A stretch of DNA of 31,567 nucleotides from Catajapyx aquilonaris (Eukaryota), in assembly GCA_000934665.2 (NCBI GenBank), contig KZ538242.1, positions 62,001 through 93,567 on the forward strand, given 5' to 3'. The position numbers and the translations under genes were made by a program. Shown piece by piece: positions 861 through 30,394 of the stretch. Below the pieces are notes generated by a model, which saw only the letters and a list, made by a program, of their open reading frames with translations, was not told the DNA's origin and did no database searches. Within the stretch, counting starts at the first letter, position 1; each line of letters opens with the position of its first letter.

Positions 861-1016
861 GTCTTTTACCGTTAGAAGCACGTTCCTTTGAAGATTTCCT
901 TCCATTTCCCCCTCCTTTTGGACCCCACTTCCTTCCCCTGTCCATCTCCCTTCTGATCCAGCATCATCTGGACCATATCATCCGAACATCTGAGGACTCT
1001 TAGAGGAGCACAAGCC

Positions 1017-3704
1017 ATGTCTCCAGTCACCCTGGAGTCTCTGATGGAAGTGTCTCTTGGCAACAGGAGGCTTCTGGAAGGGTTGATGTCACGAATGGAC
1101 TGGTGCCAGGAGGCCATCGGGAGGGTGGAGGGGTGGATGAAGAAGGAGAAGAAGCGTGGAAGGGAAGGTACGCATGAAGGAGGAACAAGGGTGCGCATCA
1201 GGAATTAATGCGTCTTGCATTCCAGAAGATGCTTCAGGCCAGCTGCTTCCCACCGAGTTTGTTTCCGTCAACATTGGACATGCAGGCAGCGAGTCATTGC
1301 CTGCGTCGTATAATGCTGAAAAAGAAATAAAAGTGGAGGAAGAGGATTGGGGAGTGGAGCAGGTGAGCGCATGAAGGATCACGCACTGATATACTAAAAA
1401 TTGAAAGCACCTGTAACTTAGTCAATTGAATAAAAAGCTTGTTCTTATATTTTTTAGGAGAGCTGTTATAGAGACTTGGAAGCAGAGACAGACAGAAACA
1501 GCTGTGAAATTACTGGAAATGTTAATTCAGAAGGTGGATATTCAGCAAGTATGACAAATTCTTTCCCACATGCATGTTAGAAGGTTTTCAGGACTATTCG
1601 ACATGAAGCCATGCTTTAATATGTGCCAATTGCGGTGTTGTTAATAATTCACCTAATAAGTTTCACATAAGCTGAGCATGAACCTTGACCTCAAAGTTGG
1701 GAAGTATCATTTGGACCAAGTAGGAATGCAGTAACCAAACACTCTTCAAGGGACTGCCCAAAAGTATGCGGGAAAATTGATCAAGGGACCGGAAAAAAGG
1801 GACGTTAAAAAAAGCACTAAATGCGGTAGCGTTATATCAAGGTTTTACTGTATATCGTCAGATGTGGTCAGCACACTTTCGAGTTAATCAGTGGATCTCC
1901 CCTCGGAGTCAAACTAGATGTACAGTCGCCGACATATTGATTGAATCACTTGCGAGCATCATTGCTCTGAATATCCAGGATAACGTTAGAAATCGGCTCG
2001 CAAGTGATTCAATCAATATGTCGGCGACTGTACAGTACTTACACACCTGACCCCCTTTGTGTGCCATCTGACTCAGCCATTTTCATTTGCAGGTGGAGCA
2101 GCTTCCTCACCTGATCTTCCAGTCAATGAAGAAGTCCATCCCCATGTGATTCAAGGATTGCACTTGCTTCACGAGGGAACAATGAAGCAAGAGATGCACA
2201 CTGAGAGTGAATTACGGAGCCAGGTATGGTCATTACTTCATTGCACAGTATTCGTATATTCTAAAAGTGATTTTTAAAAATGATAAGGGGCAAGCTGTTT
2301 CAATTAGGGGCAAGCCATATGTTAATGAAGGCATTAAATAATTTTTCATGTTTTATCAATGAATTTTTTTTTCAGTTTGTTACACTTTTGGAGATATGTT
2401 GTTGAAATTACCTAGAATGCGCCCAAAATTGTTCACATTATTATCCTATGATATATTAAATTCATTTATGACATGCTTGAGAGATAAATAAGTGCACATT
2501 GTTTCCATGAAAAACCGCAGTTGGAAAAAAATTATAATTGCGGAATTAGTACAGAATTGGTTATGAAAATGCGTCTATTGTGGTTACCTCCACACATTTA
2601 TTTGGAAGAAGTGCCTCCTTTTTTTTATGGGAAGAGTAATCTCCATTGATTTGTCATTATTCTTCAGGCCTCTACTTCTGCAAGCTGGAAGAACTCTCAG
2701 TCCATCAAAGTTGAGGCATTTCCATTAGAGGCGAGTGTTTCACATTAAAAAGATAAGGAAGCAGTTTCCTGGAAGTGGTCTGAATAGAACTGATGAGAAC
2801 AAAGAGAAGGAATTGATTGACTACAAGTCTTACTGAATGTTGCAGGTTGATGGAGCGGAAAATGAGGAAGTCAGTGATGTGAATGACTCCAGTGATGAAC
2901 ATGCCCCATCTGCTCAATCGGCTGATGATCCTGGTTGTGGCTCAAGTCGGATAACAAACCAAAAGCGGCAAAGGAAGGTACGCTTGTTTTAGTGTTAAGT
3001 TAATCAATGCCAAATCTAATTGCAGGAATTGCATTTTTTTTTTTGCACAACTTTAACACCTGCTTTACTTTTGAATTTTTTTGTAGCGCAAGAAACTACT
3101 GCAGCCAACTGAAACAGATGGTCCAAACAACACTGATCGGAACTGTGGGATTTCTTGTGCTTTGGAAATGGTTAAAGGAAAGAAATGGCATCAGTGTGAT
3201 CAATGCTCGTATAAGACTCAAGACACTGCAAACTTCAACAGGCATAAAGTTGTTCACGGAAGTGACCAAAAGCCTTTTGGTTGCGATGCATGTGAAAAGC
3301 GATTTAAGTCAAACCACGCCATGAAATTGCATTATAAGGCTGTCCATCTTGGTGTTACACCTTTTACTTGTGAAGTGTGCGATAAAAAGTTCCGTGGGAA
3401 GAGGAATTTGGAGGAGCACATGATGATCCACGCTGGCAAGAAGCAGCATTCATGTCAAGTGTGCAAAAAAACTTTTACGCTAGCCCGACATTTGAATTAT
3501 CACATGCAACTTCACACCGGAGAAAGAGAGTTACACTCTTGCTCCGTTTGTGGCAAAGGGTTCGGGTCCAAATCCGAAGTGGTCATACATATGAGGGTCC
3601 ACACTGGCGAGAAGCCCTATTGTTGCGACATTTGCCAGAAGAAGTATGCTAATCGCACTACCTTCCTTCGTCACAAGAAAATCCACACGGGACAAGGAAC
3701 CTGA
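1017..3704 (+). CDS. Gene 1: conserved N-terminal helical domain plus 6x C2H2 zinc-finger protein (about 440 aa, 7 exons)
   Basis: Exons 1017-1167, 1226-1362, 1458-1548, 2093-2223, 2668-2730 (GC donor), 2846-2977 and 3087-3704 join in frame (phases 1,0,1,0,0,0). The last exon has six C-x2-C-x12-H-x3/4-H fingers with TGEKP-like linkers. AATAAA at 3782. Confidence 0.88.
1729..1850. mobile_element. Degenerate pogo/Tigger-like MITE remnant
   Basis: Right end cgttatatcaaggttttactg-TA resembles a Tigger-type TIR; the left end (cagtaacc) is decayed. Confidence 0.4.
1923..2030. mobile_element. Tc1/mariner-type MITE (108 bp) in gene 1 intron 3
   Basis: Perfect 35-bp TIR cagtcgccgacatattgattgaatcacttgcgagc; TA on both flanks. 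Confidence 0.85.
3087..3704 (+). CDS. Gene 1 terminal exon, six C2H2 zinc fingers
   Basis: Acceptor ttttttgtag at 3086 is in frame with ORF 3162-3704 (HQCDQC...HKKIH). Confidence 0.92.
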   Translation, partial: RKKLLQPTETDGPNNTDRNCGISCALEMVKGKKWHQCDQCSYKTQDTANFNRHKVVHGSDQKPFGCDACEKRFKSNHAMKLHYKAVHLGVTPFTCEVCDKKFRGKRNLEEHMMIHAGKKQHSCQVCKKTFTLARHLNYHMQLHTGERELHSCSVCGKGFGSKSEVVIHMRVHTGEKPYCCDICQKKYANRTTFLRHKKIHTGQGT

Positions 3705-3707
3705 GGT

Positions 3708-4815
3708 ATCGTATGATTCAACTAAGATTCTCCTGAATTGCGCTGAACACGCTGTACAATATTTGGTAATAATTTTACAACAATAAATCAATAATTATGA
3801 CCCTGAAAAATGACACCAGTGGGAACGTACCCGACGTTTTGAATAGATTCTGAAGCGGCGACAGCAACACACCCTTAAGGAATTCCAAGATGGCGGCCGT
3901 GCAATGCATTTAGAAGCCTGCTGATTAACTTTCCATCGCATTTCCAGCTAGTTTGGTCCCCCTTCCTGCACTTTCCAACTCGCTTCTGGTTTAGCCTCAT
4001 CTGGTCTTCCCTTACCAACATCAGAATCAGGACTGAGGACTCTAGACTTGAAGCAATGGCTGCTCCAGTCACCCTGGAGTTTCTGATGGAAGTGTCTCTA
4101 GGCAACAGGAGGCTTCTGGAAGGGTTGATGTCACGGATGGACTGGTGCCAGGAGGCCATCGGGAGGGTGGAGGGGTGGATGAAGGAAAGTGGTAAGCAAG
4201 ATGAGGTTGGAAGGTTCCGCAAGATCTGCTATATAATAATCCAATTTTTCACGGCAACAGGAGCTAATTGACATACTTGTTTGCATGAGATTTAATTTCT
4301 TATTCAATTTCAGATGTCGCTTCAAGAAAGTTGCATCCCAGAGAGTTTGTAGCTGTCGACATTCAGGATAGAAGCGGTCGGATGTCGGACGGTAATATCA
4401 AAGTGGAACCGGAGGTTTGGGCACCAGAGCAGGTGATTAAAGCTGGAGTAATTGTGTACAATGGATGCTACACAGAAACTACTGCACTTGCATAATTTTA
4501 CTGTTCTGGAACGCAATGCATAAGTCAATTTTAAATAACTTGGAGCAATGTTTCGTTATGTGCCGTACCATCTAATGATTTCAATTGAAAATTGTAAGAT
4601 TGTGTCAGTTCAAAACTTTCACAAGTAGCTTAGTTGATCAATTTCTGGTTTTTCAATTTTTTGTCTCTTATTTTACAGGACACATTGAATGATGACCTGG
4701 AAGCGGAAACGGCTAAAAACATCAGTGAACTTTCAACCTTCATGAGTTGTGCATGTGCAGAAGTTGACAGTTTGGCTAGTGCAAGTAAGATTTAATGGAA
4801 AACGCAATGATTACA
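3708..4815 (+). repeat. Recent segmental duplication, matches about 6143-7230
   Basis: Promoter, exons 1-3 and introns are nearly identical by eye between genes 2 and 3. Confidence 0.9.
3821..3897 (+). promoter_or_regulatory. Gene 2 core promoter with YY1/Pho-type motif
   Basis: GGAACGTACCC, then CAAGATGGCGGC at 3886-3897. Confidence 0.6.
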
Positions 4816-6041
4816 GTTGAAAGGAGCTTGAGTAGTGCAGCCTTGCAATGAATATTTATGCATCCCATGTGATACTGGACATTGCAAATGCAGTAGAACC
4901 CCAATTATCCGACTCCTCGGTTTATCCGACCGTCCTGCTCCAGCAATAAATGTATGGTATCTCATCAAACACTAATGCAGGCCTACTGACAGTACTAAGC
5001 ATTTGTTTTGTACTGTATTGCCTTAACATTTTAAACAGTAGAGTGTGTATGTAAAAGATAAATGCTTCCCTAATTGTAAAAGATAAATACTTCGCTATTG
5101 TTTAGAAAACCGTATTATTGTACGAGTATAATGTCATTCTTTCAAATATTTTTTGTTGTTTCATAAAACTTTCCTTTGCTTCTCGGATTATCCGACCTTC
5201 TCGGTCATCCGACGATGCCCCAATCCCGTGGGTGACACATAATCGGGGTTCTACTCTACAGTACCATATTTGACGGCGTATAAGACACTTTTCCCCCCCA
5301 AAAAATGGTCCAAAAAAATCGTATTTCAGAAGTTGCTTCAGGCCAGTCCCTTCCCACCGAGATTGTTTTTGTCAACACTGGAGATGAACGCAACGAGTCA
5401 ATGCCTGCGTGTGACATTGAAACGGAAATAAAAGTGGAGGAAGAGGACTGGGGGGCAGACAAGGTGAGGACAAGGCACATAGGCTGATAGACTTTAAAAA
5501 TCAAAAGGTGCCAGTAACCTTGTTAGTCAATCGAATTAAATGTGTTGTTATTTTTTAGGTCAGATGTTATAGAGACTTGGAGGCAGAGACAGCCAAGAAC
5601 ATCAGTGAAATTGTTGAAATTGTCGGCAGTGTCGATTCAGCAGGTAGGGCACTTTCTTTATTGTGTCACTTGCATGTTAGAAGGTGTGCAGGCTAACTGG
5701 AAATGAAACCATGCTTTAATAAGTGCAACAAAAGTGTCATGAAGTACATGCAGTTTTGATTCCAAGTAGCTATGTACCAAATGAAGGGAGATGAAGAAAG
5801 AGAGCTGGAAGAAGCATGTGCATCAAGGAGGAAAGTCGTGCCCAGTCCCAGCCAACAGAAGAAGTGTATAAGAAGCCAAATGCACCTTCCCAAGATGATG
5901 AAAGACAAAAATGCCAGCCGCTGCCGAAAGAAAGGGTGCAAGGGGCGGTCTAGGGTGCAGTGTGATTGTTGCCACTTGTATTTTTGTGTTGTTTCGGAGC
6001 GCAACTGTTTTAAAGCATATCATTTATCCCTCTGTAAGTAA
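4056..6041 (+). CDS. Gene 2: chimeric family member ending in a piggyBac transposase C-terminal cysteine-rich domain (about 283 aa, 6 exons)
   Basis: Exons 4056-4191, 4314-4432, 4679-4784 (near-copies of gene 3 exons 1-3), 5330-5463, 5559-5643 (paralogs of gene 1 exons 2-3) and 5770(or 5767)-6041 all join in frame without stops. AATAAA at 6079. Confidence 0.65.
4891..5256. mobile_element. pogo/Tigger-like MITE in gene 2 intron 3
   Basis: TIRs cagtagaaccccaattat / ataatcggggttctactc; internal ttatccgac repeats at both ends; TA on the right flank. Confidence 0.75.
5770..6041 (+). CDS. piggyBac/PGBD-type transposase C-terminal Cys-rich (zinc-binding) domain exon
   Basis: HLP...RCRKKGCKGRSRVQCDCCHLYFCVVSERNCFKAYH gives C-x4-C-x7-C-x2-C-x4-C-x6-C-x4-H with the RNCF motif typical of PGBD C-termini. 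No DDD catalytic core is present. Tandem AAG/TAG acceptors both give phase 1. Confidence 0.75.
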
Positions 6042-6243: not shown

Positions 6244-6320
6244 AGGAACGTACCCGACGTTTTGAATAGATTTTGAAGCGGCGACAGCAACACACCCTTA
6301 AGGAATTCCAAGATGGCGGC
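6244..6320 (+). promoter_or_regulatory. Gene 3 core promoter with YY1/Pho-type motif
   Basis: GGAACGTACCC, then CAAGATGGCGGC at 6309-6320. Confidence 0.6.
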
Positions 6321-6480: not shown

Positions 6481-8297
6481 ATGGCTGCTCCAGTCACCCT
6501 GGAGTCTCTGATGGAAGTGTCTCTAGGCAACAGGAGGCTTCTGGAAGGATTGATGTCACGAATGGACTGGTGTCAGGAGGCCATCGGGAGGGTGGAGGGG
6601 TGGATGAAGAAAAGTGGTAAGCAAGATGAGGTTGGAAGGTTCCGCAAGATCTGCTATAATAATCCTATTTTTCACAGCAACAGGAGCTAATTGACATACT
6701 TGTTTGCATGAGATTTAATTTCTTATTCAATTTCAGATGTAGCTTCAAGCAAGTTGTATCCCAGAGAGTTTGTAGCTGTCGACATTCAGGATAGAAGCGG
6801 TCAGATGTCGGACGGTAATATCAAAGTGGAACCTGAGGATTGGGAGCCGGAGCAGGTGATTAAAGCTGGAGTAATTGTGTACAATGGATGCTACACAAAA
6901 ACTTGCGTAATTTTGCTGTTCTGCAACGCAATGCATAAGTCAATTTTTAAATAACTTGGAGCAATGTTTCGTTATGTGCCGTACCATCTAATGATTACAA
7001 TTGAAAATTGTAAGATTGTGACAGTTCATAACTTTCACAAGTGGCTAAGTTGATCAATTTCTGGTTTTTCAATTTTTTGGTCTCTTATTTTACAGGACAC
7101 ATTGAATGATGACATGGAAGCGGAAACGGCTAAAAACATCAGTGAAATTTCAACCTTCATGAGTTGTGCACGTGCAGAAGTTGACAGTTTGGCTAGTGCA
7201 AGTAAGATGATGGAAAATGCAATGATTACAGCAATGTGGTATTAAAGTATTGCATCCCTCTTCAGGTGAGGAATCTTCCACACACATCCATAGTGCAATC
7301 GAGTCTGAGCAAATGCCTCCGCACTCTTCACATATTCAGAAACCTGAACTCGGAGATGGTATAAAACCTGAGGTATAACGAAGACCTCCTATTATGATTG
7401 CAAACTGGAAAATATCCAACCAATTTTCAGAATAATGATGCCCAACCAAGCGCATTAGAGGACAAACGCATCCCATCGGATCACATGCAAGATGACTCTG
7501 ATGAAGTCACGAATGGGAGTGGAAAAAGACGCAGGAAAGAAAAGGTATGCTTGTTAATTTTACAGTCAGGTTTCACTACATCAGCTTTTCTATCTCCAAC
7601 TGGTGAAGAATTTTCTGTTCGATCAACCTGTGAGCATCTGGTTACGTTCTTGTTGCGTTAAAGTGGAATTATTTTCTAGGGAAGGCCCAAAGTGCAGGCA
7701 ACAGACCAACAGAATGATGACCAAGAGGCTTCTAGTAGCATGGACAAGGAGGAAACTGTACAGATGAAGAGGAATGAGAAAGGCATGTTCCAGTGCAGCA
7801 TATGTTCGTACCAGTCGTACCACATTTCGACAATCAAGAGGCATGAAACGACCCACAACAACGAGAAGCCCTACTGTTGCAGCATTTGTGAAAAAAAGTT
7901 TTCCTTGAAGAGTGCGTTCATGCGGCATTTCCGTACCGTCCATCTCGATAATAAGCCTTTCTCTTGCGACATATGCAACAAGAAATTTGCCAGGCGGGAC
8001 AGAATGGAGGAGCACAGGAGGATTCACACTGGCGAGAGGCCACATGCATGCAAAGTGTGCAACAAAACCTACGTTTCGCTAAATCACTTGAAGATTCACA
8101 TGATTACGCATAAGGATAAGACAGACGCACACACTTGCACCCATTGCGGCAGAGCATTTCAAGCCAAACGTGACATGGTTGTCCACATGAGGACGCACAC
8201 AGGTGAGAAGCCCTTCTGTTGTGACATATGCCAGAAAAGGTTCACTCGCCGTAATATAATGAATCATCACAGGAGACGCCAGCACGCAGGAGAATGA
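6481..8297 (+). CDS. Gene 3: N-terminal helical domain plus 6x C2H2 zinc-finger protein (about 399 aa, 6 exons)
   Basis: Exons 6481-6616, 6737-6855, 7096-7201, 7266-7372, 7431-7544 and 7680-8297 are in frame with canonical GT-AG introns; six fingers in the last exon. Confidence 0.9.
7680..8297 (+). CDS. Gene 3 terminal exon, six C2H2 zinc fingers
   Basis: Acceptor attttctag at 7679 is in frame with ORF 7692-8297. Confidence 0.92.
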   Translation, partial: GRPKVQATDQQNDDQEASSSMDKEETVQMKRNEKGMFQCSICSYQSYHISTIKRHETTHNNEKPYCCSICEKKFSLKSAFMRHFRTVHLDNKPFSCDICNKKFARRDRMEEHRRIHTGERPHACKVCNKTYVSLNHLKIHMITHKDKTDAHTCTHCGRAFQAKRDMVVHMRTHTGEKPFCCDICQKRFTRRNIMNHHRRRQHAGE

Positions 8298-9370: not shown

Positions 9371-9440
9371 AGGAACGTACCCTTCGAACAGTTTCGTGAT
9401 GGCGGTGGGAACACACCCGCAGGAATTCCAAGATGGCGGC
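9371..9440 (+). promoter_or_regulatory. Gene 4 core promoter with YY1/Pho-type motif
   Basis: GGAACGTACCC..GAACAGTT, then CAAGATGGCGGC at 9429-9440. Confidence 0.6.
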
Positions 9441-9598: not shown

Positions 9599-11505
9599 AT
9601 GTCTCCGGTAACTCTGGAGTCTCTGATGGAAGTCTCTCTAGGCAACAGGAGGCTTCTGGAATTGTTGGTCTCCAGGATGGACTGGTGTCAGGAGGCCATC
9701 GGAAGGATGGAGGGGTGGATGAAGCAGCATGGATGGGAACAGCCAGAAGGTGAGGTTCCGCAAGACTAGCGGAAATGTAAAAAATGGACATGCTGCGGAA
9801 CGGTGTGTAAATCTTGTCAATTTCAGATGCTGCATCAAGCATGAGCCTTCCCGAAGAAGTAAACCCTACCTGCCTTGATGGTGAAAGTGGCAGTCCAATG
9901 CCTGCATGTTATATCAAAGTGGAAAAAGAGGAGATTGATTCAGAGCAGGTGAAAATAAAATCTTTAGCAATTACGTACATTCTGTCCAAAGCATGCAAAG
10001 GTCCAGGCTGAACGTGACTTTGACAACATTGCACAAGATGTGGAAACCTCGACTATGTTACGGAATTTCTTAACGTATCCAATTTTTTCCCCCCCAGGAG
10101 ACGTGGAATCCTGCCTTGGAAGCAGAAATGAGCGGAAACATCAGCCTTTTAAGCCATGCAGATGAGGCAGTTGGGAATTTAGCAAACGCAAGTAAGGTTA
10201 CATCACTTGCGCAATTCTACGAAAGTCATTTGAGTCCATGGAGACAGCTAATACGAATAGAACCATAATATTTAGATGGTAGCAATGTTTATGGCTTTCA
10301 ATTCAAGTTTTTCTTTTGTCGTGTCTCAATAGGCAAGGAAGAATCCTTTGTACCTTCGCATAGTGAAAGCCGGCATCAGGAGGTCTTTGCGCTCTCATCA
10401 CATCAAGAGGGAGCTTTCCTCCAGGAAGATGAACTCATGGACAGTACAAACTTCCAGGTACGAGAAAACTACACCTTTTATTTCCATTTCAATGTGACTG
10501 TTTGCCAATCTACTTTCAGCAGGGTGAGATTGACGTGTCCGAAACAGAAGACGCCCCAGCTGATCATACGCACACTGAATCTGGTGACGGCATGCTTGGG
10601 AGAGGAAATCAAAATAAACCAGGGAAGGTATACATGCCAATCTTTTGCATGAAATATGATTCATCAAAATAATGTCGTAAGTCTTGTCATAACCATAGTT
10701 ACTAATAATTAACTATGGTTATGACAAGACTTACGAGTTAATTATATTAGTAACTATGGTTACTACCAGTTACGGCAAAAATTTGACTGACGACATTTGA
10801 TGAATCCACCACCAGTATATTAAAAATAAAAATAATTATTGTTCAGGAATTTTGCAACTTTTGCTCTGGTGTTTTAGTAATTTTTTGCACAACATTTGGC
10901 AACAATGCCTGCACTTTGCAGTTCAACATTTTGCCCTTATTTTGCATTCATCAAGCCTGTACGGTGCTTTGTATTTTTTTTTTGTATCCCTTTTGAAGCA
11001 AATTCGGACTTTAGAAGAGCGTCTGCACCTCATACGAGAAGTGGAGACCAACCCGTGGGAGAAGCTGACTGACATATCCAAGCGACTAGGCCTTCCATCA
11101 TCAACGCTACGTTCAATCATGGCAAGGAAAAGGGAGACCAAGCAGCAGGCAGAAAAGTGCGGCTCATCCGCCACGAAAAGGAAGAACAGCAAGCAGTCGA
11201 CTTACGGCGCGTTGGAAAGGGTCCTCTTTCCCTGGTATCAGCAGGCCCTCGCATCAGGCATTCCCGTCAACGGCAACATGGTGCGGGAAAAAGCGCTGGA
11301 AATAGCCGCAACAATGGGGATACACAATTTTTCTGCATCAAACGGGTGGATCTGCCGGTTCAAGCATCGTCACGGACTCATGTCTTATAAGTCGGGCGCG
11401 GACAGTGCTGCGGTGGACGTTGAACCGCCGGACTGTTCAGACTCCCTTCAATTGCAAGGAGAAACTTATTCCAGATGGAAATGTACCGAGGAGGAACCTA
11501 ATTAA
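9599..11505 (+). CDS. Gene 4: N-terminal helical domain fused to a pogo/Tigger (CENP-B-type) transposase DNA-binding domain (about 368 aa, 6 exons)
   Basis: Exons 9599-9749, 9827-9948, 10098-10191, 10333-10457, 10520-10627 and 10999-11505 are in frame. The last exon encodes a psq-like HTH (TLEERLHLIREVE...ISKRLGLPSSTLRSI) plus a CENP-B HTH (LERVLFPWYQQ...IPVNGNMVREKALEIA...FSASNGWICRFKHRHGL). AATAAA near 11545. Confidence 0.85.
10658..10806. repeat. Nested inverted repeat or fold-back MITE in gene 4 last intron
   Basis: Perfect 27-bp arms at 10675-10701 and 10710-10736; inverted copy of the centre at 10737-10762; outer arms gattcatcaaa..atgtcgt / acgacatttgatgaatc. Confidence 0.75.
10999..11505 (+). 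CDS. Gene 4 terminal exon: CENP-B/Tigger-type double helix-turn-helix, no DDE domain
   Basis: Phase-0 acceptor cccttttgaag at 10998; motifs as above; the ORF stops before any catalytic domain. Confidence 0.88.
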   Translation, partial: QIRTLEERLHLIREVETNPWEKLTDISKRLGLPSSTLRSIMARKRETKQQAEKCGSSATKRKNSKQSTYGALERVLFPWYQQALASGIPVNGNMVREKALEIAATMGIHNFSASNGWICRFKHRHGLMSYKSGADSAAVDVEPPDCSDSLQLQGETYSRWKCTEEEPN

Positions 11506-11583: not shown

Positions 11584-11650
11584 AGGAACGTACCCTCTGA
11601 ACAGTTCCAGCCGCGGATAGCAACACGCCCTTTTGGACAAAATGGCGACT
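11584..11650 (+). promoter_or_regulatory. Gene 5 core promoter with YY1/Pho-type motif
   Basis: GGAACGTACCC..GAACAGTT, then CAAAATGGCG at 11638-11647. Confidence 0.6.
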
Positions 11651-11791: not shown

Positions 11792-13600
11792 ATGGTCACC
11801 CTGGAGTCTCTGATGGAAGTGTCTCTCGGCAACAGGAGGATTCTGGAATGTTTGATGTCCCGCATGGACTGGTGTCAGGAGGCCATAGGAAGGATGGAGG
11901 GGTGGATGAAGAGCAGGGAAGGTACGCAAGGTACGGAAGGTACGCAGGATGGAAGTGGCGAGCCGATGCCTGCAGATGATATCAAAGTGGAAACGGAGGA
12001 GTGGGAGTCGGAGCAGGTGAGAAAAGTACCATCACTCATAATGTATGTACTATTTCAAATGTGTCTTTTTCACGTATTGTTTGTCAGGTGACGTGGAATC
12101 CTGACTTGGAAGCAGAAACAGCGAAAAACATCAGGGAAATTTCCACTCTCTTAAATTGCGCAGACGCAGCAGATTGCAGTTCGGCGAACACAAGTATGGA
12201 ACTTCAATTATTATAATTGCATTTAGAGCGTACCACCACATGAATAAGAAAGCTTTTGAGACGACAGCTAGACGTTCAATTGCGATATTTTTGTGGAAGG
12301 AAATAAAACATTTGATGTTGTTACAGGTAAGCAAGAGCCGTCCACATCGTTGCAGAGTGAAAACCATTCGGAAGAAATTCTTGGACTTTCCGTGCACCAT
12401 GAAGCAGCCTTTCTTCAGGAATCTGAACTCGGTGGCAATGTGAAGTTGGAGGTAGGGAACAAAATGCGTATGTCATGTTCATCGATCGCAATTTGAGATC
12501 TTTCCCGATTAACTTTCAGAAGGATGATACCCAGCCTTGTAGCTCCTACGAAGAATATGTCCCAGCTGATCAAATGCAAGAAGGCTCGAATGATGGCACA
12601 CACACGAGAAGGAAGAGAAACAGGCCGGGAAAGGTATGTTTGTCGTGCACATTGAATGAGAGGTTCGTAATCATGTAATCATTGTAACGAGAATAATCCA
12701 AGAAAGAAGTCACGGTTGCATAATTAATTTTTGGTCATTATGAGATATTTTAAGCGGGTATTTCAGTTCTCAGGCGTAAATATTTCCCCCTGTTTAGTAC
12801 CATTTAGTTCCGCTTTCAAGAAGTTGTTGCTGCTCCGAGCAATGCGTCTAGTTTGATAAAAAATTATTAGATCAGGTAATTGAAACAAAGCAGTAAAAGC
12901 AGCATTGCTTACTTCCCTGATAGATGATAGATCTAGTCGAAATTGGCCGTGGAGTATTCATACATTTTTTTTTTTTCAGGACAAGATCAGTGTGCAAGCA
13001 ACTGGAAGCGATCAACAGTATGACGACCATGGAGCCTCGGCTGACATGGATATGGGAAACAGTCAAGAGCCGCAGAAAAATAAGAAAGGCATGTACCAGT
13101 GCAGCATTTGTTCATATCAGACTTACCACATTTCGACGTTAGCCAAGCATAAAACTTCTCACAGCAAGGAAAAGCCGTACCGATGCAGTGTTTGCGAAAA
13201 GCGATTTACCATAAAGCATGCGTTCATACGGCACTTTCAGGCTGTGCATCTCGAGGATAAGCCTTATTCTTGCGACATATGTCAAAAGGGATTTATTAGG
13301 AGGGACAGACTGGAGCAGCACAGAGGAATTCACACAGGCGAAAGGCCGCATTCATGTCAAGTGTGCAACAAATCCTTCACTTCACATACCTATTTGAAGA
13401 CTCACATGGTTACTCACAGCAACGAGAGAAAGTTGTTTACCTGCTCAAGTTGTGACAAATTCTTCCAGTCGAAACATGCCTTGGTTTTACATATGAGGAG
13501 TCACACAGGGGAAAAGCCGTATGGCTGTGACATATGCCAGAAAACGTTTGCTCGACGCGGTGTAATGATTCGCCACAGGAAAAGCCACACTGGAGAATAA
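11792..13600 (+). CDS. Gene 5: N-terminal helical domain plus 6x C2H2 zinc-finger protein (about 396 aa, 5 exons), close paralog of gene 3
   Basis: Exons 11792-12016 (fused exons 1+2), 12088-12193, 12327-12451, 12520-12633 and 12980-13600 are in frame; fingers are collinear with gene 3 ([16 protein letters not shown]). Confidence 0.9.
12980..13600 (+). CDS. Gene 5 terminal exon, six C2H2 zinc fingers
   Basis: Acceptor poly-T cag at 12979 is in frame with ORF 12905-13600. Confidence 0.92.
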
Positions 13601-13999: not shown

Positions 14000-14709
14000 T
14001 CCCGTCTGCACGGCCCCATTAATTACTTGAGAGACCATGCCCATTTCATGTCACGGCAAGCTCTTAACAATAAGAAAATCAGTTGGCCTTGCGTGGCTGT
14101 CATGTGGGAGCCCAAGTCAATTGCTTCTTTTTTGACAATGACTTTGGGGATTCGCGATTGTCTGCTCTCTTCACCACAGGTTTCGACAAAACCATAGCAG
14201 AGCATGTAAATAGGTGTGAATTGTCAATTTACAGTGTGTGTTTGAATGTCATGCTTCGGCATAGGCCAAATTTTATTATTGCGGTGGGTTGTGTGTCACT
14301 GGAAAAAGGTGTGGGTTTTTTTTTTGTGTGTATATTATGATCGCAACTTGTGGCACAGGCCTTCCACGGCTGTTTTTTTGATAATTTAAAACAGTCATGA
14401 GCATGTATTGCCGACTTAATAAAAGGAGAGATAAATCCATGTATTGGCACAGATTATTACATAATTTACATGGCATTGCCAAATCCTAAACCACATCCTA
14501 TTTATTCCAATGCAAAATAATGATTATATAGTTGCATTGTCACATACGTGAAGCTATCAAAATTTAAGAAAGCAGACATCATACGCCTTTGTATTGTTGA
14601 AAGTAGGAGGCGATGGTCCAGCTACTATAGACAGTGTACATATTTCTCGGGGAAATACTTTTAAGGGATATGAAGTGATTGTGAATTGACATTCCGTTCA
14701 TCACGCCAG

Positions 14710-15167
14710 AGAGGAAGAGGAATGACTTGACCTTGGCCGACAAAGTAAAGGTCATCCAGATGCTCGACTTTCGTCCGAAGATGTCCCAGGCTGAAATCGC
14801 AAAGAAGTTCGGCTGCTCCCAGTCGCAAGTGTGCAGAGCCCACAAGAACAGGGAGGCCATCATGCAGCAGTGGGGCACAAATGGGAATCCAAACCGCAAG
14901 AGGAAGCGAGAGGGCAAGGATGGAGAAGTTGGAGACGCTCTTCTTCAGTGGTTTATGGAAACTGGAGGAAAGTCTGTACATTTGACTGGTCCCGTATTGA
15001 TGGAAAAGGCCAGATCCTTAGCAGTCAGCCTAGGCGATCCGGATTTCAAACCAAGCGAAGGCTGGCTGAGCAGGTGGAAGGAGCGGAACAATCTTGTGTT
15101 CAGAAGAGTACATGGTGCCAGAAAAGACTGTGGGACCTTCTCATCTGGGATTGACTCTGCCAGATAA
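14710..15167 (+). CDS. Orphan CENP-B/Tigger-type double-HTH exon, probably an alternative terminal exon
   Basis: Encodes xRKRNDLTLADKVKVI...SQAEIAKKFGCSQSQVCR...LLQWF...LTGPVLMEKARSLA...FKPSEGWLSRWKERNNL. There is an in-frame TGA at about 14682 with no ATG before the domain. Acceptor ttccgttcatcacgccag at 14709 (phase 1). AATAAA at about 15363. No DDE domain. Confidence 0.78.
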
Positions 15168-15727: not shown

Positions 15728-15790
15728 GGGAACGCACCATCAGAACAGTTCGTGTGGCAGCCGCACGAATGCGATTCAAAGATGGCGTCC
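15728..15790 (+). promoter_or_regulatory. Gene 6 core promoter with YY1/Pho-type motif
   Basis: GGAACGCACC..GAACAGTT, then AAGATGGCG ending at 15787. Confidence 0.6.
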
Positions 15791-15902: not shown

Positions 15903-18900
15903 ATGCTGAACATTCGAACCATGAAGTCCGTGAGTAGCGTAGGAGTTCAGGCCACATCTCCAGTGGATTTGGAGATGCTGATGGACACATGCTTGTCCAA
16001 CAAGTGTCTTCTGGAAGGGGTGGTGTCACAGCTGGGAGAGTGGAAGGAGGTCATGCGGGTTCTGGGCGAATGGGTACGGCAAGCACAGGGTGAGTCACAT
16101 TGCGAGGGGTCATCATTGCGACTTGATTGGGGTTGCTTTTCTTTATTAGCTGCTGAAGATGGTCCTGGAAGACACTCTGATGTTGGCGGGCCAGAGTGCA
16201 CAACCAACACCGAAGTGCACGTGAAGGTGGAACAGACGGATGAGTTGGAAGCGGGGCTGGACGCAGGAAGTTCGGTAAGGTTGCCTACTAGAGAGCCACG
16301 CGCTCATGGCTGGACACGCCAACTGGAAATGCTCCACATATGTTATTGATACTGTCGTAAGTTCATTCGATGGCAAATTAGATTAATGACCATAAAGGCG
16401 CATACGCACAGGCCGTCGACGAGAACTGAAACCAAAACCGTCGACGGCTTGTGTGAATGGGCCTTAAGGGAAGAAGTAAAATCACTATCAGCAGCGCTTA
16501 TGTTGTCAAAAAAATTATACCATCAGAAAAAATTATGATATGAACACACATAATTAGTAGATATTAGGACTTTCCTTTATATTTTTACAGGTAACAGAGT
16601 TTCAGTCCATCGGAGCTCAGACTGACATGAGAGAAACTGCATCTCTCGCAAGCCATGAAGAAGAATATGCAGTAGCTGGCACTATGTCAAACGCAGGTAT
16701 GTTATTTACGTGTTTATAGGTGGAGATCGTGATTGTTGATGATAATCGAGTGCTCAAAGCTGGAAGTTGCAGTGTCACGATTGGTGGCAGGCTATTGTTT
16801 CAGCGAAACATTGACCCCAATGTGAAGGTGTCGATTGGTATACAGCCGCACTTACATGTGAGCGATTAGATTGGCGACGTTGCAGCGATGTCACCAATTG
16901 TTTGGGGCGAAAATTCTCGGTGATGGCATCGCCAGTCAAATTGCTCACATTTAAACGCGGATTAAGGTGTCATTGTATTGGGTTCAATTGATTTTCACAG
17001 AGAGATAAATACATTTTGATAAAGCAGCACCTTTTATTTCCTAGTCGATTACACATTATTTGTGCATATTTATGTGTAAAGGTAAATATATAGCAATTTT
17101 CTCTCTACAGGTGGAGGCGAAGCCCTTAATTTGTCCTGTGAGAGAGTTGCCCATGGGGATGAGCCTGATGAACTTGCCGCATTACCTGAGCGAACAATTC
17201 AGCCAGAACTTGGAAGACGATTAAACATCAGGGTGAATGTAATATTCTATTTTTTTATATGGTTGGCAGCTGATGTAACATTGGATTTAATCTTTAGTAG
17301 TACACTTACTGCATTACTCTGCAAATAGTGGCATGAATATATGAAACATGGTTGAGCAGGAGAGTGGTAATTATTTTAATAAGAAGTTAGTGTCAATTGT
17401 AATATGGAAAACCAAGTGAACATGGAGTACTGCAATCACTGCGTAATGCATGGTGCACCAAAATTACATGTTCAGCAGCTTACAAATTATGCAAAATTTT
17501 GATACGTATGTATAAAACTATGTGCATGTTTCCAACAGGCAACTAGCCCCTTCCATGGCCTAGCCAGCTGCTCAAACGTAATAGTGAAGCAGAGGAAGAA
17601 AAGTACTGTGAGTATTCATACGGGGGACATACAGACCATCGTTCTGAATTGATGGAATAATTTTTATTCAGTGGCTCCTTTTCTCATGCTGGATATTACA
17701 GGTCTCTGCTGCTGGAACCTCAAACGACTGTGGACCAGCTGAAGCGAATGGAGCATCTGCCGAAACGGGCAGCCCAGCAGGCATACCAAAGAGACGTTTC
17801 TCTATGAGACAAAGAGTTGTGGTGAGTGATGGGTGGCCACAAAAGTGATCCGTTCCTTATTCTATGCAAAGCAGCACATTTTGTGGTAATTTTGAAATTC
17901 GCACATCTTTTTTTTTCGGTAAATCTATCATTACTGGAGTTGGATTCAGATGAACTTTCACCTGTCTTCTGTTACCCCCCAGATGACCGCTTCTGCAATC
18001 TCGGTTCAAAGCGAACCAGCAAATGGTGAAAGAGGCGTCGCTGCAGCATCGACTGCTTCATGTGACATTCCCAGTTCGTCATCGAGAAGGGTCGTGAGAA
18101 GGCACACACTGCCTGTAAGTAAATTGATGAATCTCGCTAACTGGAAGTGCCAGCAATGAAACATATAGACGGAGGATTTGCGCCCACATTTGGCCCCTTG
18201 TGAATGGGGGGGAAAAAATGCATTCCTAGTAATTATATGGAAAGTTAGGCCAATCTTGGCATTTAATTAATAAATACACCTACAATAAAGAGGAATTCAA
18301 GATAATATGGATTTATACCAAACACATAAGCAATAATTTTCTTCCCACCTTTTTCCAGGGCAGCAACAAGCCAGAAGCAACTGAAGGCAACACTCGGACC
18401 ACCTATTTCTTTCGCAACAAGGAGAGTGTTACGCCATCTGGATCGGGCACTGGAGAAAGCAAGAAGCTGGAAGAACCCAACAAGATGCACCAGGGAAAGC
18501 TTAACCATACTGAAAATAAGTCGCACCATGCAAGTCATCAACTGAAACGCGGGGGCTATTCTTGCAATTCTTGCAAAATTAAGTTTACAAGGAAGGATAA
18601 CTTATACAGACACTACGACTCCATCCATAAGGGTCTGAAGCCTCTCTCCTGTGACACGTGCGGTAAGAAATTTTTGGAAAAAAGCGGATTGGAGGATCAT
18701 AGGAGGACTCACACTGGCGAGAGGCCTCATACATGCAAGGTGTGCGAAAAGACCTTCACTACCAGAAGTAACTGGAGGGAACACATGCGCATTCATGCAG
18801 CTAAAAGAAAATTATACACATGCTCGATTTGCAAGAAAGTTTACACACACAAAGCCAGCTTCATTGCACATGGGAGGAAACATACTGGCGAGAAGCCATT

Positions 18901-19063
18901 CTGTTGCGAAGTATGTCAGAAGAAGTTTAGGGATGCCAGGTTCTTGCATAAGCACAGGAGAATCCACACGGGGCAGAAACCATATGCTTGCACCATATGC
19001 AACCAAAAATTTGCTCAGTCGCACAGTAGGAAGCGCCACATGAGAGTTCACGAAGGCACGTAA
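15903..19063 (+). CDS. Gene 6: divergent family member, N-terminal helical domain plus 6x C2H2 zinc fingers (about 521 aa, 8 exons)
   Basis: Exons 15903-16089, 16150-16274, 16591-16696, 17111-17232, 17539-17607, 17702-17821, 17983-18114 and 18359-19063 are in frame. The N-terminus SPVDLEMLMDTCLSNKCLLEGVVSQLGEWKEVMRVLGEW aligns with the family motif. Exon 3 is again 106 nt. Confidence 0.88.
16396..16464. mobile_element. PIF/Harbinger-type MITE (69 bp) in gene 6 intron 2
   Basis: TAA on both flanks; imperfect TIRs aggcgcatacgcacaggccgtcgacg / cgtcgacggcttgtgtgaatgggcct. Confidence 0.7.
16844..16962. mobile_element. Degenerate Harbinger-like MITE in gene 6 intron 3
   Basis: Imperfect inverted arms of about 33 bp: ccgcacttacatgtgagcgattagattggcga / tcgccagtcaaattgctcacatttaaacgcgg. 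Confidence 0.55.
18359..19063 (+). CDS. Gene 6 terminal exon, six C2H2 zinc fingers
   Basis: Acceptor ctttttccag at 18358 is in frame with ORF 18485-19063. Confidence 0.92.
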   Translation, partial: GSNKPEATEGNTRTTYFFRNKESVTPSGSGTGESKKLEEPNKMHQGKLNHTENKSHHASHQLKRGGYSCNSCKIKFTRKDNLYRHYDSIHKGLKPLSCDTCGKKFLEKSGLEDHRRTHTGERPHTCKVCEKTFTTRSNWREHMRIHAAKRKLYTCSICKKVYTHKASFIAHGRKHTGEKPFCCEVCQKKFRDARFLHKHRRIHTGQKPYACTICNQKFAQSHSRKRHMRVHEGT

Positions 19064-20319: not shown

Positions 20320-23300
20320 ATGGCGGCCTTGAAGGAATGGGCCAGGGGTAGCAGGTGTGGAGCTGAACAGGGTGAGTTTTTAGGGGATGTAAACACACCT
20401 ATATGTGACATGTAAATGAGAGAATCAATTGACTGGAATGTGGTTTTCCTCTTCAGTTGCAGTTGCAGACTGTCCTTCTGAAGCCCTCACTGCAGTCAAA
20501 GCCGAAGGGGAAAGTATAGATTTCATGCCGGCAGGCAGCGTCAAAGTTATTGAATCGGTCCAGTGCAAGACGGAGGAGATCACAGTGGAGGATGAAGGCC
20601 CATATGGAATTGATAGTTTGGTGGGGATGACATTGCACATTTATAGGGTCAGAAGGTCAAATGAAATGGCAGGATCAAAAATGAAAGGGGTGGGAAATGT
20701 TGATGTTGCAAATGGGGTCGTATCTTTGAAACGATTTGTGCATTACATAACTATGTGTGCACAGAGTATTACAAAATTTGTGGTGATTCAAAATCACTTG
20801 CATCATCTGAAGTCACAGTTTTCCCTTTGATAATAATGGTAGTTATAGGGATGAAGAGTCACATGAACACATCACAGCTTGCATCACAGTTTTCTTGATA
20901 TTGCTGTTTAAAGACACGTTTACATGTGAGAGATTTGATCAGCGAACAGCGATGTTGCAGTGATGACATCTCTGAACACAAGTAACGATAGATGTAACCA
21001 TATATTTTTAGCCCTAAACAATTAGTCTCATCGCTGATCAAATCGCTTGCATGTTAATGCAGCTTAAGATTGATATTAAATGTTGTTAGTTGGACAGTAA
21101 CATGTTTCCCCCTTGTCATGGCAGAGTCAAGACTTGGAAGCCAACGAAGCCAAAATATCCAGAAACATCAGTGAAATTGCTGCTCTCTTGAGTGGTTCAG
21201 ACATAGAAGATGCCTGTTTGGCAAATGCAGGTATGATTATGATGTTTATTCATATGTTAATGAAGGCTTCTGTTTTAATGAGTGCAGAATTAAAATCTCT
21301 GAACTAGAAGTGGGGGAATAGGTGGCAGAAATCTTCAGCAGAATATCGATCCTAATGGTTTAATGTTGCAGCATAGTAGTGTGACCTGAGCGGCTAGGAA
21401 CACACACAAAACAGAAGTCAGTGGGTACGGTTAAAGACAGACAGTTTATTCGGTTTCAGTAGGTCACCAAAATATGGAGGAAGAAGGATAGCAGGGTTAG
21501 GGAAGGTAGTCGGGAGTGACCAGTCATCCAGGATACTCTCCTAGAGAATGGCCTAGAGGCCCCTGCGTTGCGTGCTTAAATAGTGGTGCAAACGCAATGC
21601 GAGATGGGAACAGCAGACTGGTGACATCACGTGACCAGTCGGGGTGCAAGTACATTGAGCACAAAATAATGGGACCATGTACAAAAGACATGTCCAAAAT
21701 AAAATGGTCACAGTAGTAGCCTACTGTACAGGCAGCTAAATATTTTTCTTGTATATTAGAACAAGAGTAAATAAAACTTGCAAATTCCTGCATTCTTTAC
21801 TTGAAGGTTTCTGGAACTGCATTTCTTTGTGGCCTCCACTTTTATTTATTCTTTAAATTATTTGAAGACGTACTGTGCTATGCCATTGCATTTTCACAGG
21901 TGGAGAAGCAGCCTCCACATCTGGAAATCCTCAAGAATCTCGCGGACTCTCCACACTTGATGGAGGAAACGCTGAGGAGGAAGAAGACCTTGGAAGCACA
22001 GACAGTACTATAGTATGTGATATATTATTTTTGTTTCAAATTGATAATATCAAGAAGGGTGGGGAATCTGTTGGATGGCAGTCGATATTGCGGTGGTGAG
22101 CTGCAGATTTTAATCATGTTCATTTCATTAATTGTTAGTGTTAACAAATAGCATGTGGTGGCATGCGAACATGTTCCTGGAGGCCTGCAAGCCAAAGATT
22201 GAAGATTTCTCAGATCTAGGCCCTCCCCATCACATTCTCATGATGCACCTCTGAGCTGCAATGTTATTCTGTGTCGTAGGTCGCTACTTCTGAAGACTCA
22301 GACAACCCTAAACCAGGTGAGGGTGACAGCGTTCCATCCGCATCAGCTGACCCATCAATTGCACAAGCAAGCAGTCCAAGCAGGAGGAGGAGGACGACGA
22401 AGAAACAAGTTCTTGTAAGTAACATTCTGACAGAAAAGGGGAGCAATGTCTTATCCACTTGTAATGAGCACATTTTCTGGAAACACCGAGAATCTTCCAT
22501 GATTCTTTAAATATTAAAATTAGTACTCTGTTACACAGTATTTTCTCAGTAATTTGCAATAATGTCACAGAATTATTGACAGGTAGCAGTACCAAATTTG
22601 TAACCTTTCCCAAAGATACTTAAACATCGCTTTTGCTTACAACCAACCAGAAAATTTATTGTAGGTTTTTAGTTATTTACAACACTTGAGTAGCATTTTA
22701 AATGCTCTATGATCTGGTGAAGTCCATTTAGTCCTGCAGATTCATAATCGAAGTCAGGAATTTCTGTCTTCACTAGGGTTGCCGGATGTCTGGTTTTGAG
22801 CCAAACAGTCCGCCATTTGAGCGATTTTGTCCGGTAGAATATTTGAGGAAATACACTTTTTCAATGCCTACGCAAAGCCTTCTGCATTCCACATGCTTAT
22901 AGTGCACACTACTGCATACTGATTAATGAAACTATCCATAAAATGCGAAATTAGCGCACCGGAAAATTATGCAGGACCAAAATCAAATCCATATTATTAT
23001 CATCTGCCGTCTCCTTATTGCCAAATACGCCTGGAATGTTATTTACATACAATAATTATTAACAATTTGTTAAGAAGTTAAGCAGTGAAGAATATTAATG
23101 AGTGTAATATATTAGGCATTCTTGGCCACTGATTTCACATATTTCAGGCTCCGGTGCACAAGGACTTGGCTGATTCGAGTGACTCTGATCACTCAAAAGA
23201 GAATGGTTGTGCTGCCTTGATGAGGCGGAGGAAGAAGGGAAAAGGAAAGGTTTGTATTGCTAAATGACTGACCATTTCTGACCCTCTTCAGGGCATTGGT

Positions 23301-25577: not shown

Positions 25578-25590
25578 CCAAGATGGCGCC
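25578..25590 (+). promoter_or_regulatory. YY1/Pho-type motif upstream of gene 8
   Basis: CCAAGATGGCGCC about 190 nt upstream of ATG 25770, a spacing similar to the paralogs. Confidence 0.55.
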
Positions 25591-25769: not shown

Positions 25770-28700
25770 ATGTCCCCCACCGAGGAGAACCCTCCCCTCC
25801 TGGAGGCCCGCCTGGAAGGGATCGTGTCCCGACTGGTCTCCCTGGAGGAGGACATGGCTGCCCTGAAGGAGTGGGCCAGGGGCTGCAGGAGGTGTGGGGC
25901 TGGACGGGGTGGGTTGCTAGGGGGGACCACCCTTAGAATGATGTAAACACTCTCTGGGATGTGCTTCTTTCTCCTCTTCAGCTGCAGGCCAAGGCCATCC
26001 AGGCCACCCTCCTCCTGAAGGCCTCTCTCCTTCAGGCGGGGCTGGTGGAGACTCGGTCGCTGCTGTGGGGAGCATCAAGACAGAGTGGGGCCAGTGCAAG
26101 GAGGAGGAGGAGGTCACGGTGGAGGAGGAAGGCCCGCAAGGAATTATTGGCGGTTGGGTGAGGATGAGATTGCATGTTGGTGAGGTCAGGAGGTCAAATG
26201 AAATGGCAGGATCAAAAATGAAAGGGGTGTGAAATGTGATGCTGCAAATGGGGTTGTATTTCTGAAACTATTTGTGTATTACATAACTAGGTGTACACAG
26301 AGTATTAGAAAATTTGTCGTGATTCAAAATCACATGCATCATCTGAAGTCACACTTTTGCTCTTTGATAATAATGGTTTTAGGGATGGAGAGTCACATGA
26401 ACACATCACAGTTCTCTTGAAATTTCTGTTTAAAGCCATGATTACATGGTAGCGATTTGATCAGCGATGTTGCAGCAATGACATGACTGAGCAAAAGAAA
26501 CAATAGAGGTAACAATATATATTCGCCCCAAACAATTGGTTACATTGCTCACCGCTCTCATGTAAACGCAGCTTAAAGCTGATATGAAATATTGTTAGTT
26601 GGACCGTAACATGTTTCCCCCTTGTCATGGCAGAGTCAAGACTTGGAAGCCAACGAAGCCAGAATATCCAGAAACATCAGTGAAATTGCTGCTCTCTTGA
26701 GTGGTTCAGACACTGACAATGGCAGCTGGGCAAATGCAGGTATGATTACGATCCTTATTCATATATTAATGAAGGCCTTGGTCGTAGACTGTGCAGATTT
26801 TTAATCTAAGTAGAAGTGGGGCGATGGGTGACAGAAAACTTCAGCAGAACATTAGTCCGATTGTTTTAAAGTTGCAGCATAATTGTACTCTACAGTGTTG
26901 CACATTAATCGAGTCATACTGCTAGTGACATTTTCTGAAGCGGCAGAAGAACGAATCGAAGATATGGAACTAGCAAGCCGTGCGATCAAGATTCGTTCTT
27001 CTGCCGCTTCGGAAAGTGTCGCTAGCAGTATGACTCGATTAATGTCCAACACTGTACAACCAACAGGTATTGTGTGCATTACATTGGAGCTGTCCATCCG
27101 TCTAGCAGGGGGCCAGGCACGTGAAGGTCTCCCAATATCAAAATTAATACTATCAATCTCCACTCACAAGGGAACGGTACTTGTTGGAAGTTGAGTAGCC
27201 CTATGCAACTGGACATAGGGAAATCATCCATTTGGTTAATTCGAAAAGTGAAGTCCATTGTGGCTGAGATGCAAGAGTTTATGAGATAATGGCTTCTTAA
27301 GTTACCTATTGCAGCTGACACGGTGGTGGTATTTCCCAGGATAGGTAGTTCTGGTATAGAAAATATCTATCATCTATCAGTCAAATGGACTGTGTTGACC
27401 GCAACACTGCAACCTCTTCAATGCCATTTACCAGCCCCCTGCATCTCATACGATACTGTAGTGTAATATAAAAGTCTCCGTCCGCGGCACTGGCGCATCC
27501 CCACAGGGATCTTCTGGTTCGGGCGGACACTCGCTGACGCCTTAACCAATCCGAACCATTCTTTCCACTGCATCTGGGTCCGGAGGGCATTCGCAGATCG
27601 CCAGTCAGCCAAGCGAACCGCAAGATACCTGTGGGGCCATGCCAGCGCCAAATTTTAGGCTTGGGGAGACTTTTATATTAAACAACCGTCACCACAGGGC
27701 TAGATATTTTCTGCATTCTTTACGTGAAAGTTACTGGAACTGCATTGCATTGTGGCCTTTACTTTTAATTATTCTTTAAATTATTTGAAGTAGTACAGTA
27801 CTGTTCCATTGCATTTTCACAGGTAGAGAAGCAGCCTCCGCATCTGGAAATCCTCAACAAGAATGTCACAGACTCTCCACACTTGATGGAGGAAACTCTG
27901 AGCAAGATGAAGGACTCGGAAGCAGAGAAATTACTTTAATACATGTGTGAAATATTATTTTTGTTTCAAATGGATAATATCAAGTAGAGTGGGGAGTCTG
28001 TTGGATGGCAGTGGATATTGCGGTAGTCAGCTGCAGGTTTTAATCATGTTCATTTCATTCATTGTTAGTGTTAACAAATAACGTGATGGCATGTGAACAT
28101 GTTCCTGCAAGCCATATACAGTATTGAAGATTTCTCAGATCTAGGCCCTCTCTATCACATTATCAGGATGCATTTATGGATGCACCTCAGGATGCACCTC
28201 TGAGCTGCAATATTATTCTATGTCATAGGTCGCTGCTTCTGAAGTCTCATACAACCCTGAACCAGAGGAGGGTGATAGCCTTCCTCCCCCATCAGCTGAC
28301 CCATCAATTGCTCAAGCAAGCGGTCCAAGCAGGAGGATGAGGACGAGGAGGAAACAAGTTCTCGTAAGTAACATTCTGGCAGAAAAGGGGTGCATTTTCT
28401 TGTCCACTTGTAATGACCACATTTTCTGGCAACACTGGGAATCTTGCATGCTTCTTTAAATATTAAAATAAGTACTCTGTTATACAGAATTATCTCGGTA
28501 ATTTGCAATAATGTCACAGAATTATTGACAGGTAGTAATGTCAAATTTGTACACCTTTCCCAAGATTCTGTGCAATTAGCTCACCAGAAAGTTATGCAGG
28601 ACCAAAATAAAATCAGTAATTATATCCTGCCGTCTCCTTCTTCTTGATGTTATTCACATACAATAATTATTATCAATTTGTTAAGAAGTTAAGCAGTGAA

Positions 28701-30320: not shown

Positions 30321-30394
30321 TTAAATGCAATTTTTGTGGCAAACAGTTCAAGAACAAAGGAAACATGTGGAGACATGCCAAACAAAAGCATTAG
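30321..30394 (+). pseudogene. Detached seventh zinc finger of gene 8
   Basis: Removing 29547-30324 restores GEKP-FKCNFCGKQFKNKGNMWRHAKQKH-TAG in frame. Confidence 0.88.

Follow-up and report, generated by a model that had tools for sequence, protein, structure and literature searches.

What the largest animal transcription-factor families do is set by lineage-specific heads such as KRAB, ZAD, SCAN and FiNZ. Every newly found head has opened a separate case of transposon policing or chromatin organisation. KRAB works by docking on TRIM28, and SCAN was itself captured from the capsid domain of Gag. The FiNZ sequence of the cyprinid FiNZ-ZNF genes is, in the available part of its description, cyprinid-specific, enriched in Glu, 28 amino acids (aa) long and encoded immediately 5' of the one exon that holds the fingers (Wells et al. 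2023, PMC10547256). The ZAD-ZNFs are lineage-specific tandem expansions according to the portion available of PMC7913770, and the accessible text of two further papers (PMC9688978, PMC7386202) places KRAB also on POGK, a human domesticated pogo transposase. Here we describe a head encoded by the first coding exons of a gene cluster in Catajapyx aquilonaris (assembly GCA_000934665.2, contig KZ538242.1, positions 62,001 to 93,567 of the forward strand). This stretch of 31,567 bases is referred to as the window. Judged from sequence, the head is apparently a real, undescribed and lineage-restricted N-terminal module, and it would define a family of DNA-binding proteins that has grown by tandem duplication and is confined to the lineage. 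What is new is that this head is carried on three kinds of last exon.

The cluster is eukaryotic and arranged head-to-tail, with every gene on the + strand, in DNA of 36-50% G+C. The genes are numbered g1 to g8 along the window. A core of 39 aa is present in five near-identical copies (g1-g5) and two diverged ones (g6 and g8), and g7 is a remnant. The first coding exons are as follows (nt, nucleotides).

1017..1167, + strand: g1 first coding exon, 151 nt, with ATG start, core at 1026-1142 and a phase-1 GT donor
4056..4191, + strand: g2 first coding exon, core at 4068-4184, phase-1 donor
6481..6616, + strand: g3 first coding exon, core at 6493-6609, phase-1 donor
9599..9749, + strand: g4 first coding exon, core at 9608-9724; exon 2 starts at 9827, and the junction is present in a contig of run X5 (below)
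11792..12016, + strand: g5 first coding exon, core at 11795-11911; lacks intron 1 and runs on into the exon-2 equivalent
15921..16089, + strand: g6 first coding exon, diverged core at 15963-16073
about 20320-20372, + strand: g7 remnant, the last codons of the exon only, with neither the upstream motif nor a finger exon
25770..25908, + strand: g8 first coding exon, core at 25812-25874, the most diverged of the seven

A preliminary description of this DNA had reported an effector domain of about 42 aa whose peptide is almost invariant in genes 1 to 5 and still recognisable in genes 6 and 8. The conserved core is 39 aa, so the length needed correction. The near-invariance was borne out: the core DNA of g1-g5 is 88-97% identical in nine pairs, leaving aside the recent duplicates g2/g3, and replacement divergence (dN) in the core is 0-0.06. 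Outside the core the same nine pairs are 58-74% identical over the aligned upstream sequence and 39-52% downstream. Conservation is lost within 30 nt of the core in both directions, the ungapped identity of the flanking 30 nt being 0.36 on one side and 0.33 on the other, and the 3' border of the conserved block falls within the exon, at the end of the predicted helix. The peptide can indeed be recognised in g6 (15963-16073) and g8 (25812-25874). The g6 core has 65-72 of 117 bases in common with those of g1-g5, and both genes retain an L-E-G-h-h-S...E...W pattern together with a promoter motif. Seven columns (L6, E7, L20, E21, S25, E32 and W40) are invariant across all seven copies. The recent duplicates g2 and g3 are 92.7% identical over 1.1 kb and are uninformative on selection versus conversion.

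Individual copies have peculiarities of their own. In g6 the codon matching the start ATG of g1-g5 is ACA, and in-frame ATGs occur at 15903 and 15921 (17 and 11 codons upstream), so an N-terminal extension is expected on the g6 protein. In g5 the head is followed on the + strand (11913-11945) by three tandem units of 9 nt, each with a phase-1 GT donor, and the frame stays open. The open frame from the head into the exon-2 equivalent suggests intron loss or alternative donors. As to g7, the last few codons of exon 1 remain and the rest of the exon is gone. This remnant is the upstream copy in a segmental duplication of the g8 body (20557-23369 versus 26088-29021, 76-85% identity). Most of its head exon is missing, and it has neither the promoter motif nor any finger exon.

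AlphaFold2, given the seven-row alignment of the heads, predicts one continuous helix over residues 6-49 with a mean predicted local distance difference test score (pLDDT) of 94.1. An unbroken a/d heptad runs through L6, L9, S13, N16, L20, L23, M27, C30, I34, V37 and M41. In the best heptad register, 67% of the a/d residues over the seven copies are strongly hydrophobic. The invariant residues L6 and L20 are predicted to lie in the seam of the helix, and E7, E21, S25, E32 and W40 are predicted to be exposed. The exposed positions are conserved as strongly as those of the seam, and the five exposed invariant residues suggest a partner-binding face besides any pairing seam. The peptide had earlier been proposed to be an oligomerising coiled coil. 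The single predicted helix (6-49) and its continuous heptad (L6-M41) are consistent with that proposal. A homodimer prediction with two 50-residue heads gave scores of 0.06 and 0.07, where the mark is 0.32, and speaks neither for nor against pairing.

The head is joined to a C2H2 array in five genes, to a pogo-type helix-turn-helix (HTH) domain in g4 and to a Cys-rich exon in g2. A portable effector or pairing module would be expected to give just such a picture, with one head shared by unrelated DNA-binding exons. All 31 matches to the C2H2 motif in the window lie on the + strand, and they make up five six-finger arrays and one lone finger. Genes 1 to 5 had been taken as zinc-finger genes throughout, and this was not so, since g2 and g4 are without fingers and the seven first exons are accompanied by five arrays. 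In the list below, each array proper contains exactly six fingers.

3087..3704, + strand: g1 six-finger C2H2 last exon, array proper 3195-3690
7680-8297, + strand: g3 six-finger C2H2 last exon, array proper 7794-8290
12980-13600, + strand: g5 six-finger C2H2 last exon, array proper 13100-13590
18359-19063, + strand: g6 six-finger C2H2 last exon, array proper 18563-19050
29032-29553, + strand: g8 six-finger C2H2 last exon, array proper 29041-29530
10999..11505, + strand: g4 last exon, CENP-B_N and HTH_Tnp_Tc5, a pogo-type DNA-binding domain
5767..6041, + strand: g2 last exon, 92 codons, with 8 Cys and 2 His within about 40 residues

The g4 last exon corresponds to the DNA-binding end of a pogo/Tc5 transposase with no DDE part after it. 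Its Pfam scores are 66.2 bits for HTH_Tnp_Tc5 (cut-off 22.2) and 26.8 bits for CENP-B_N (cut-off 21.2), and the g4 head is in frame with it via four acidic linker exons. A second open reading frame (ORF) with CENP-B_N and HTH_Tnp_Tc5 is present at 14685-15167 on the + strand. It is solitary, only 25% identical to that of g4, and stops directly after the DNA-binding part; by eye, the AG before it is a possible phase-1 acceptor. This ORF could be a transposon remnant or an alternative last exon of g5.

The Cys-rich exon of g2 had 11 candidates in a word-index search, of which none scored, and its AlphaFold2 model, made without an alignment, was unusable (pLDDT 44.9). On the + strand g2 also has a second pair of linker exons (5330-5643) with 74.5% DNA identity to the exon 2-3 region of g1 (1219-1626). 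This pair is in frame whether included or skipped, and may be an exon duplication or the leftover middle part of a lost gene.

With the g5 finger exon as query against longer proteins, 1232 of 1320 candidates reached E<=1e-10. The 120 listed are generic poly-zinc-finger proteins of at most 48% identity, with no orthologue carrying an annotated head among them. One finger per array has H-x4-H spacing; it is finger 2 in g1, g3 and g5, but finger 1 in g6 and g8. The lone C2H2 finger lies at 30326.

The exon models were drawn by eye from the sequence and then verified by coordinate, and they are predictions. All seven (g1-g6 and g8) are open from ATG to stop, and all introns are GT-AG. They have 5-8 coding exons per gene, with three to six linker exons between the head and the fingers. 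The intron after the head exon is in phase 1 in six of seven genes, and exon 3 measures 106 nt in five of seven. The predicted products have 419 aa (g1), 399 (g3), 368 (g4), 396 (g5), 515 (g6) and 447 (g8); that of g2 has 284 aa, or 211 aa without the duplicated exon pair.

Outside support for the models comes solely from contigs of two public runs, X1 (DNA) and X5 (from a different study), aligned to window positions 900-1300. X5 sequence is present over predicted exons 1 and 2 and absent from the intron and the upstream region. One X5 contig of 275 letters leads from the core into a loose end of 30 letters, in which the final 25 letters of exon 1 of g4 are followed by the opening 5 letters of its exon 2. 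The junction of the g4 model, 9749|9827, is thereby matched exactly. In a second X5 contig a g1-like core is joined to exon 2, with the intron absent. Among the listed rows of the DNA run X1, neither exon 1-exon 2 junction occurs. Exon-1 tails that differ from every copy in the window occur in both X1 and X5, and the family therefore extends outside the window.

Upstream of each head is a shared promoter motif, AARATGGCG, which we take to be YY1-like. It has seven matches in the window, all on the + strand and one per head, 142-190 nt upstream of the start codon. The chance expectation is 0.42 matches, and seven were attained in 0 of 100 shuffles. In g1-g5 additional conserved blocks occur upstream of the motif.

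849-857 (g1), 3887-3895, 6310-6318, 9430-9438, 11639-11647, 15779-15787 and 25580-25588, + strand: AARATGGCG motif

The head had been called unassigned and unlike ZAD, BTB, KRAB or SCAN, and its unassigned status is supported. None of four exon-1 peptides matches any Pfam family at E<=10, with KRAB, SCAN, BTB, zf-AD and DUF3669 among the families covered. A profile built from the seven heads was compared with each of 1,835,955,588 representative proteins. The collection behind this library, judged by its named sources, includes fish and tetrapod proteins of NCBI and UniRef. The profile reached no credible relative there, no zinc-finger protein, and no Gag or Arc. At E<=0.001 there were two matches, both to proteins with internal repeats; a 16-position part of the profile aligned to 10 stretches of one and 7 of the other, and both were judged spurious. 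When the head was searched by word index among longer proteins, 5 candidates came up and none scored. In the ESM Atlas the best feature score was 0.85, to unnamed clusters, with recognition below a useful level. The sole locus of a metagenome scan (L001) was rejected as a chance resemblance of 23 residues within a bacterial ORF of 211 aa. The literature search for a described head of this kind returned, in the parts of the texts available, papers on FiNZ, ZAD and KRAB only.

Nothing credible was found in the PDB, where a profile search reached a single chain, the 35-residue Arc coiled-coil peptide 6ytu_A.

Replacement and synonymous (dS) divergence were estimated by segment with the Nei-Gojobori method.

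core, g1-g5: dN 0-0.06, dS 0.08-0.51
linker exons: dN 0.38-0.76, dS 0.79-1.77
finger exons, g1/g3/g5: dN 0.27-0.51, dS 1.26-1.95

The strong divergence of the downstream linkers and fingers, which had been noted by inspection, is evident in their dN of 0.27-0.76. In the core dN/dS is about 0.1, and the replacement rate is roughly tenfold below that of the other segments. The variable core columns (n=18) are distributed over the three codon positions as 5, 2 and 11, a third-position excess with p=0.014. In our reading the conservation is due chiefly to purifying selection at the protein level, and gene conversion among g1-g5 adds to it. Conversion alone appears insufficient because dN/dS is about 0.1, 11 of the 18 variable columns are third positions and the motif persists in g6 and g8.

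Several points weigh against this reading or against the role that we propose for the head. Core dS is 2.5 to 10 times below that of the other exons. Fourfold sites, counted under identical residues, are identical in 67 of 92 comparisons in the core, 60 of 105 in the linkers and 32 of 71 in the finger exons, for pairs that are non-independent and linker alignments that are uncertain. The upstream region of g1 is nearest to g4 (74%, versus 62% for g2/g3), whereas its core is nearest to g2/g3 (97.4%, versus 88% for g4), and this incongruence fits a short conversion tract. The low core dS and the incongruence of g1 imply that part of the uniformity is due to concerted evolution, not constraint. 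The helix model was built on a seven-row alignment of paralogues. Copy structure, intact gene models, selection, the absence of relatives and the three kinds of last exon are what the analysis shows; pairing, partner binding and repression by the head are steps that we infer, and the label 'effector' is taken from the architecture alone. The only Pfam match of the g2 Cys-rich exon is to Transp_Tc5_C and is sub-threshold (16 bits versus a cut-off of 27.4). The spliced X5 contigs look RNA-like, and the kind of that run is not on record.

The most serious alternative carries the argument from conversion to its end. Under purely concerted evolution, short conversion tracts between tandem neighbours would maintain the uniformity of the first exon, and no special function would attach to the peptide. 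Core dS of 0.12-0.51, compared in the same gene pairs with 0.79-1.95 for linkers and fingers, the excess of fourfold identity over the finger exons, and the grouping of g1 with g4 upstream and with g2/g3 in the core would all be expected. We nevertheless consider this explanation unlikely. Synonymous changes in the core exceed replacements about tenfold per site, and variation is concentrated in third positions. The block border coincides with the end of the helix inside the exon, and not with a plausible tract border common to all pairs. In addition, g6 and g8, which share 56-62% of the core bases or fewer, are too diverged for conversion, yet the amino-acid pattern is retained in both, as are the promoter motif and the phase of the intron. 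Homogenisation of exon 1, which the preliminary description had offered as an alternative, thus stands as a contribution, on the lower core dS and one tree incongruence. It falls short as the whole explanation. The synonymous comparison between exon 1 and the other exons leads to the same place: divergence is lower in the core, and the conservation is not fully explained by it.

A second alternative concerns the origin of the head. The helix would derive, by capture, from the coiled coil at the N-terminus of an Arc-like Gag of Ty3/gypsy type. 6ytu_A is the sole PDB sequence reached, with a whole-sequence E of 0.044. This peptide was matched twice via E-x2-h-x2-L-E-x-W with stretch E-values of 4.5 and 35, short helices of Glu, Leu and Trp match through composition, no Gag or Arc was found among the 1.84 billion proteins and no Arc or Gag family of Pfam was matched. 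We regard a Gag origin as doubtful, and treat the match as a lead on a possible origin of Gag type and no more.

It is also conceivable, at a very low probability, that what is conserved in the first exon is an element acting at the nucleotide level and no protein domain. Examples would be a structured RNA, a site of regulation or a promoter module of transposon origin. Synonymous divergence is lowered in the core, and the promoter-proximal region is partly conserved with a fixed motif. The substitutions, however, track codons, and g6 and g8 have retained the amino-acid pattern despite their diverged DNA. The RNA fold of the exon has z = -1.52, with 17 of 200 shuffles folding equally well, and Rfam has 0 matches in the window.

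That the head is a diverged member of a described zinc-finger-associated domain (FiNZ, the fish KRAB-like domain, the KRAB A-box, SCAN or DUF3669) is highly improbable: the architecture is alike, with a short N-terminal exon common to a tandem cluster of fast-evolving DNA-binding genes, and FiNZ too is short, helical and not in Pfam in the available part of PMC10547256, but 0 of 4 head peptides match Pfam, no zinc-finger protein came from the 1.84 billion representatives, and FiNZ, set apart by its description as far as that text is available, has 28 aa and a single finger exon against a 39-aa core with 5 Glu and 5-8 coding exons here.

Returning to purifying selection on the protein, supplemented by conversion, the role of the head may be envisaged as follows. 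The first exon would encode an N-terminal module of 39-45 residues, predicted to form a single long amphipathic alpha-helix whose heptad is unbroken. This helix would pair through its a/d core. The exposed invariant stripe of E7, E21, S25, E32 and W40 would be offered to a common partner. Varied DNA-binding domains would thereby be given one output, as by KRAB, FiNZ, SCAN and ZAD elsewhere. Conversion between neighbour genes would add uniformity at the DNA level in g1-g5. By analogy with KRAB, FiNZ, ZAD and SCAN, a shared role in coiled-coil pairing and cofactor docking is probable. A bolder version is possible and is offered tentatively. The head might be the KRAB equivalent of its lineage, a pairing and corepressor-docking module that exon shuffling has spread to at least three unrelated DNA-binding exons, one of them the DNA-binding end of a pogo transposase that has been domesticated. 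On this view the cluster would be a toolkit of repressors with a single output in common, and the helix perhaps captured from the coiled coil of an Arc-like Gag.

A head with no detectable relative, under strong selection and present on both zinc-finger and transposase-derived domains, would offer a direct handle on the cofactor of the lineage. The locus, with seven genes in 30 kb, also provides a compact setting in which the shares of purifying selection and gene conversion in the conservation of a short exon can be told apart.

By eye, two short palindromic inverted repeats resembling miniature inverted-repeat transposable elements (MITE-like) lie inside introns of the cluster, at about 1915-2035 and about 10660-10740.

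Among the known systems, FiNZ, the closest published counterpart, is similar in being a short N-terminal sequence in its own exon, in a tandemly expanded and fast-evolving zinc-finger family, with no similarity to a known domain and a proposed effector end, according to the available part of its description. In that same account, from which FiNZ is known to us, its 28 residues are enriched in Glu, whereas the head has a 39-residue heptad-helix core with 5 Glu. The FiNZ exon is followed there by one finger exon, whereas four or more acidic linker exons intervene here. The arrays differ as well, the size being fixed at six fingers here and finger numbers being variable in KRAB-ZNF and FiNZ-ZNF clusters.

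ZAD, SCAN and BTB (PF07776, PF02023 and PF00651) are comparable as N-terminal modules that pair zinc-finger proteins. They are globular and have 80-120 residues, whereas the head is a single predicted helix of about 44 residues with no Pfam match. The head lacks the profile and the globular fold of at least 80 residues that define SCAN, BTB and DUF3669 (PF12417). ZAD requires four zinc-binding Cys in two pairs, and the core has one Cys in g1-g5, in agreement with the earlier remark that the C4 pattern of ZAD is absent.

As a coiled coil the head is closer to type, since the predicted model has a continuous helix with hydrophobic a/d positions. It resembles a leucine zipper in the unbroken 3-4 hydrophobic spacing over five heptads and in the polar Asn at a core position. 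It differs in that no basic region precedes it and the DNA-binding part is a separate C-terminal domain.

The KRAB A-box (PF01352) is similar in its length of about 40-45 residues, its separate 5' exon and its near-invariance among paralogues whose DNA-binding exons diverge. It differs from the head, which is without a Pfam match at E<=10 and is modelled as a single continuous helix. In the parts available of the POGK papers, KRAB sits on a pogo transposase, and this is paralleled by g4, in which the head sits on a pogo-type HTH.

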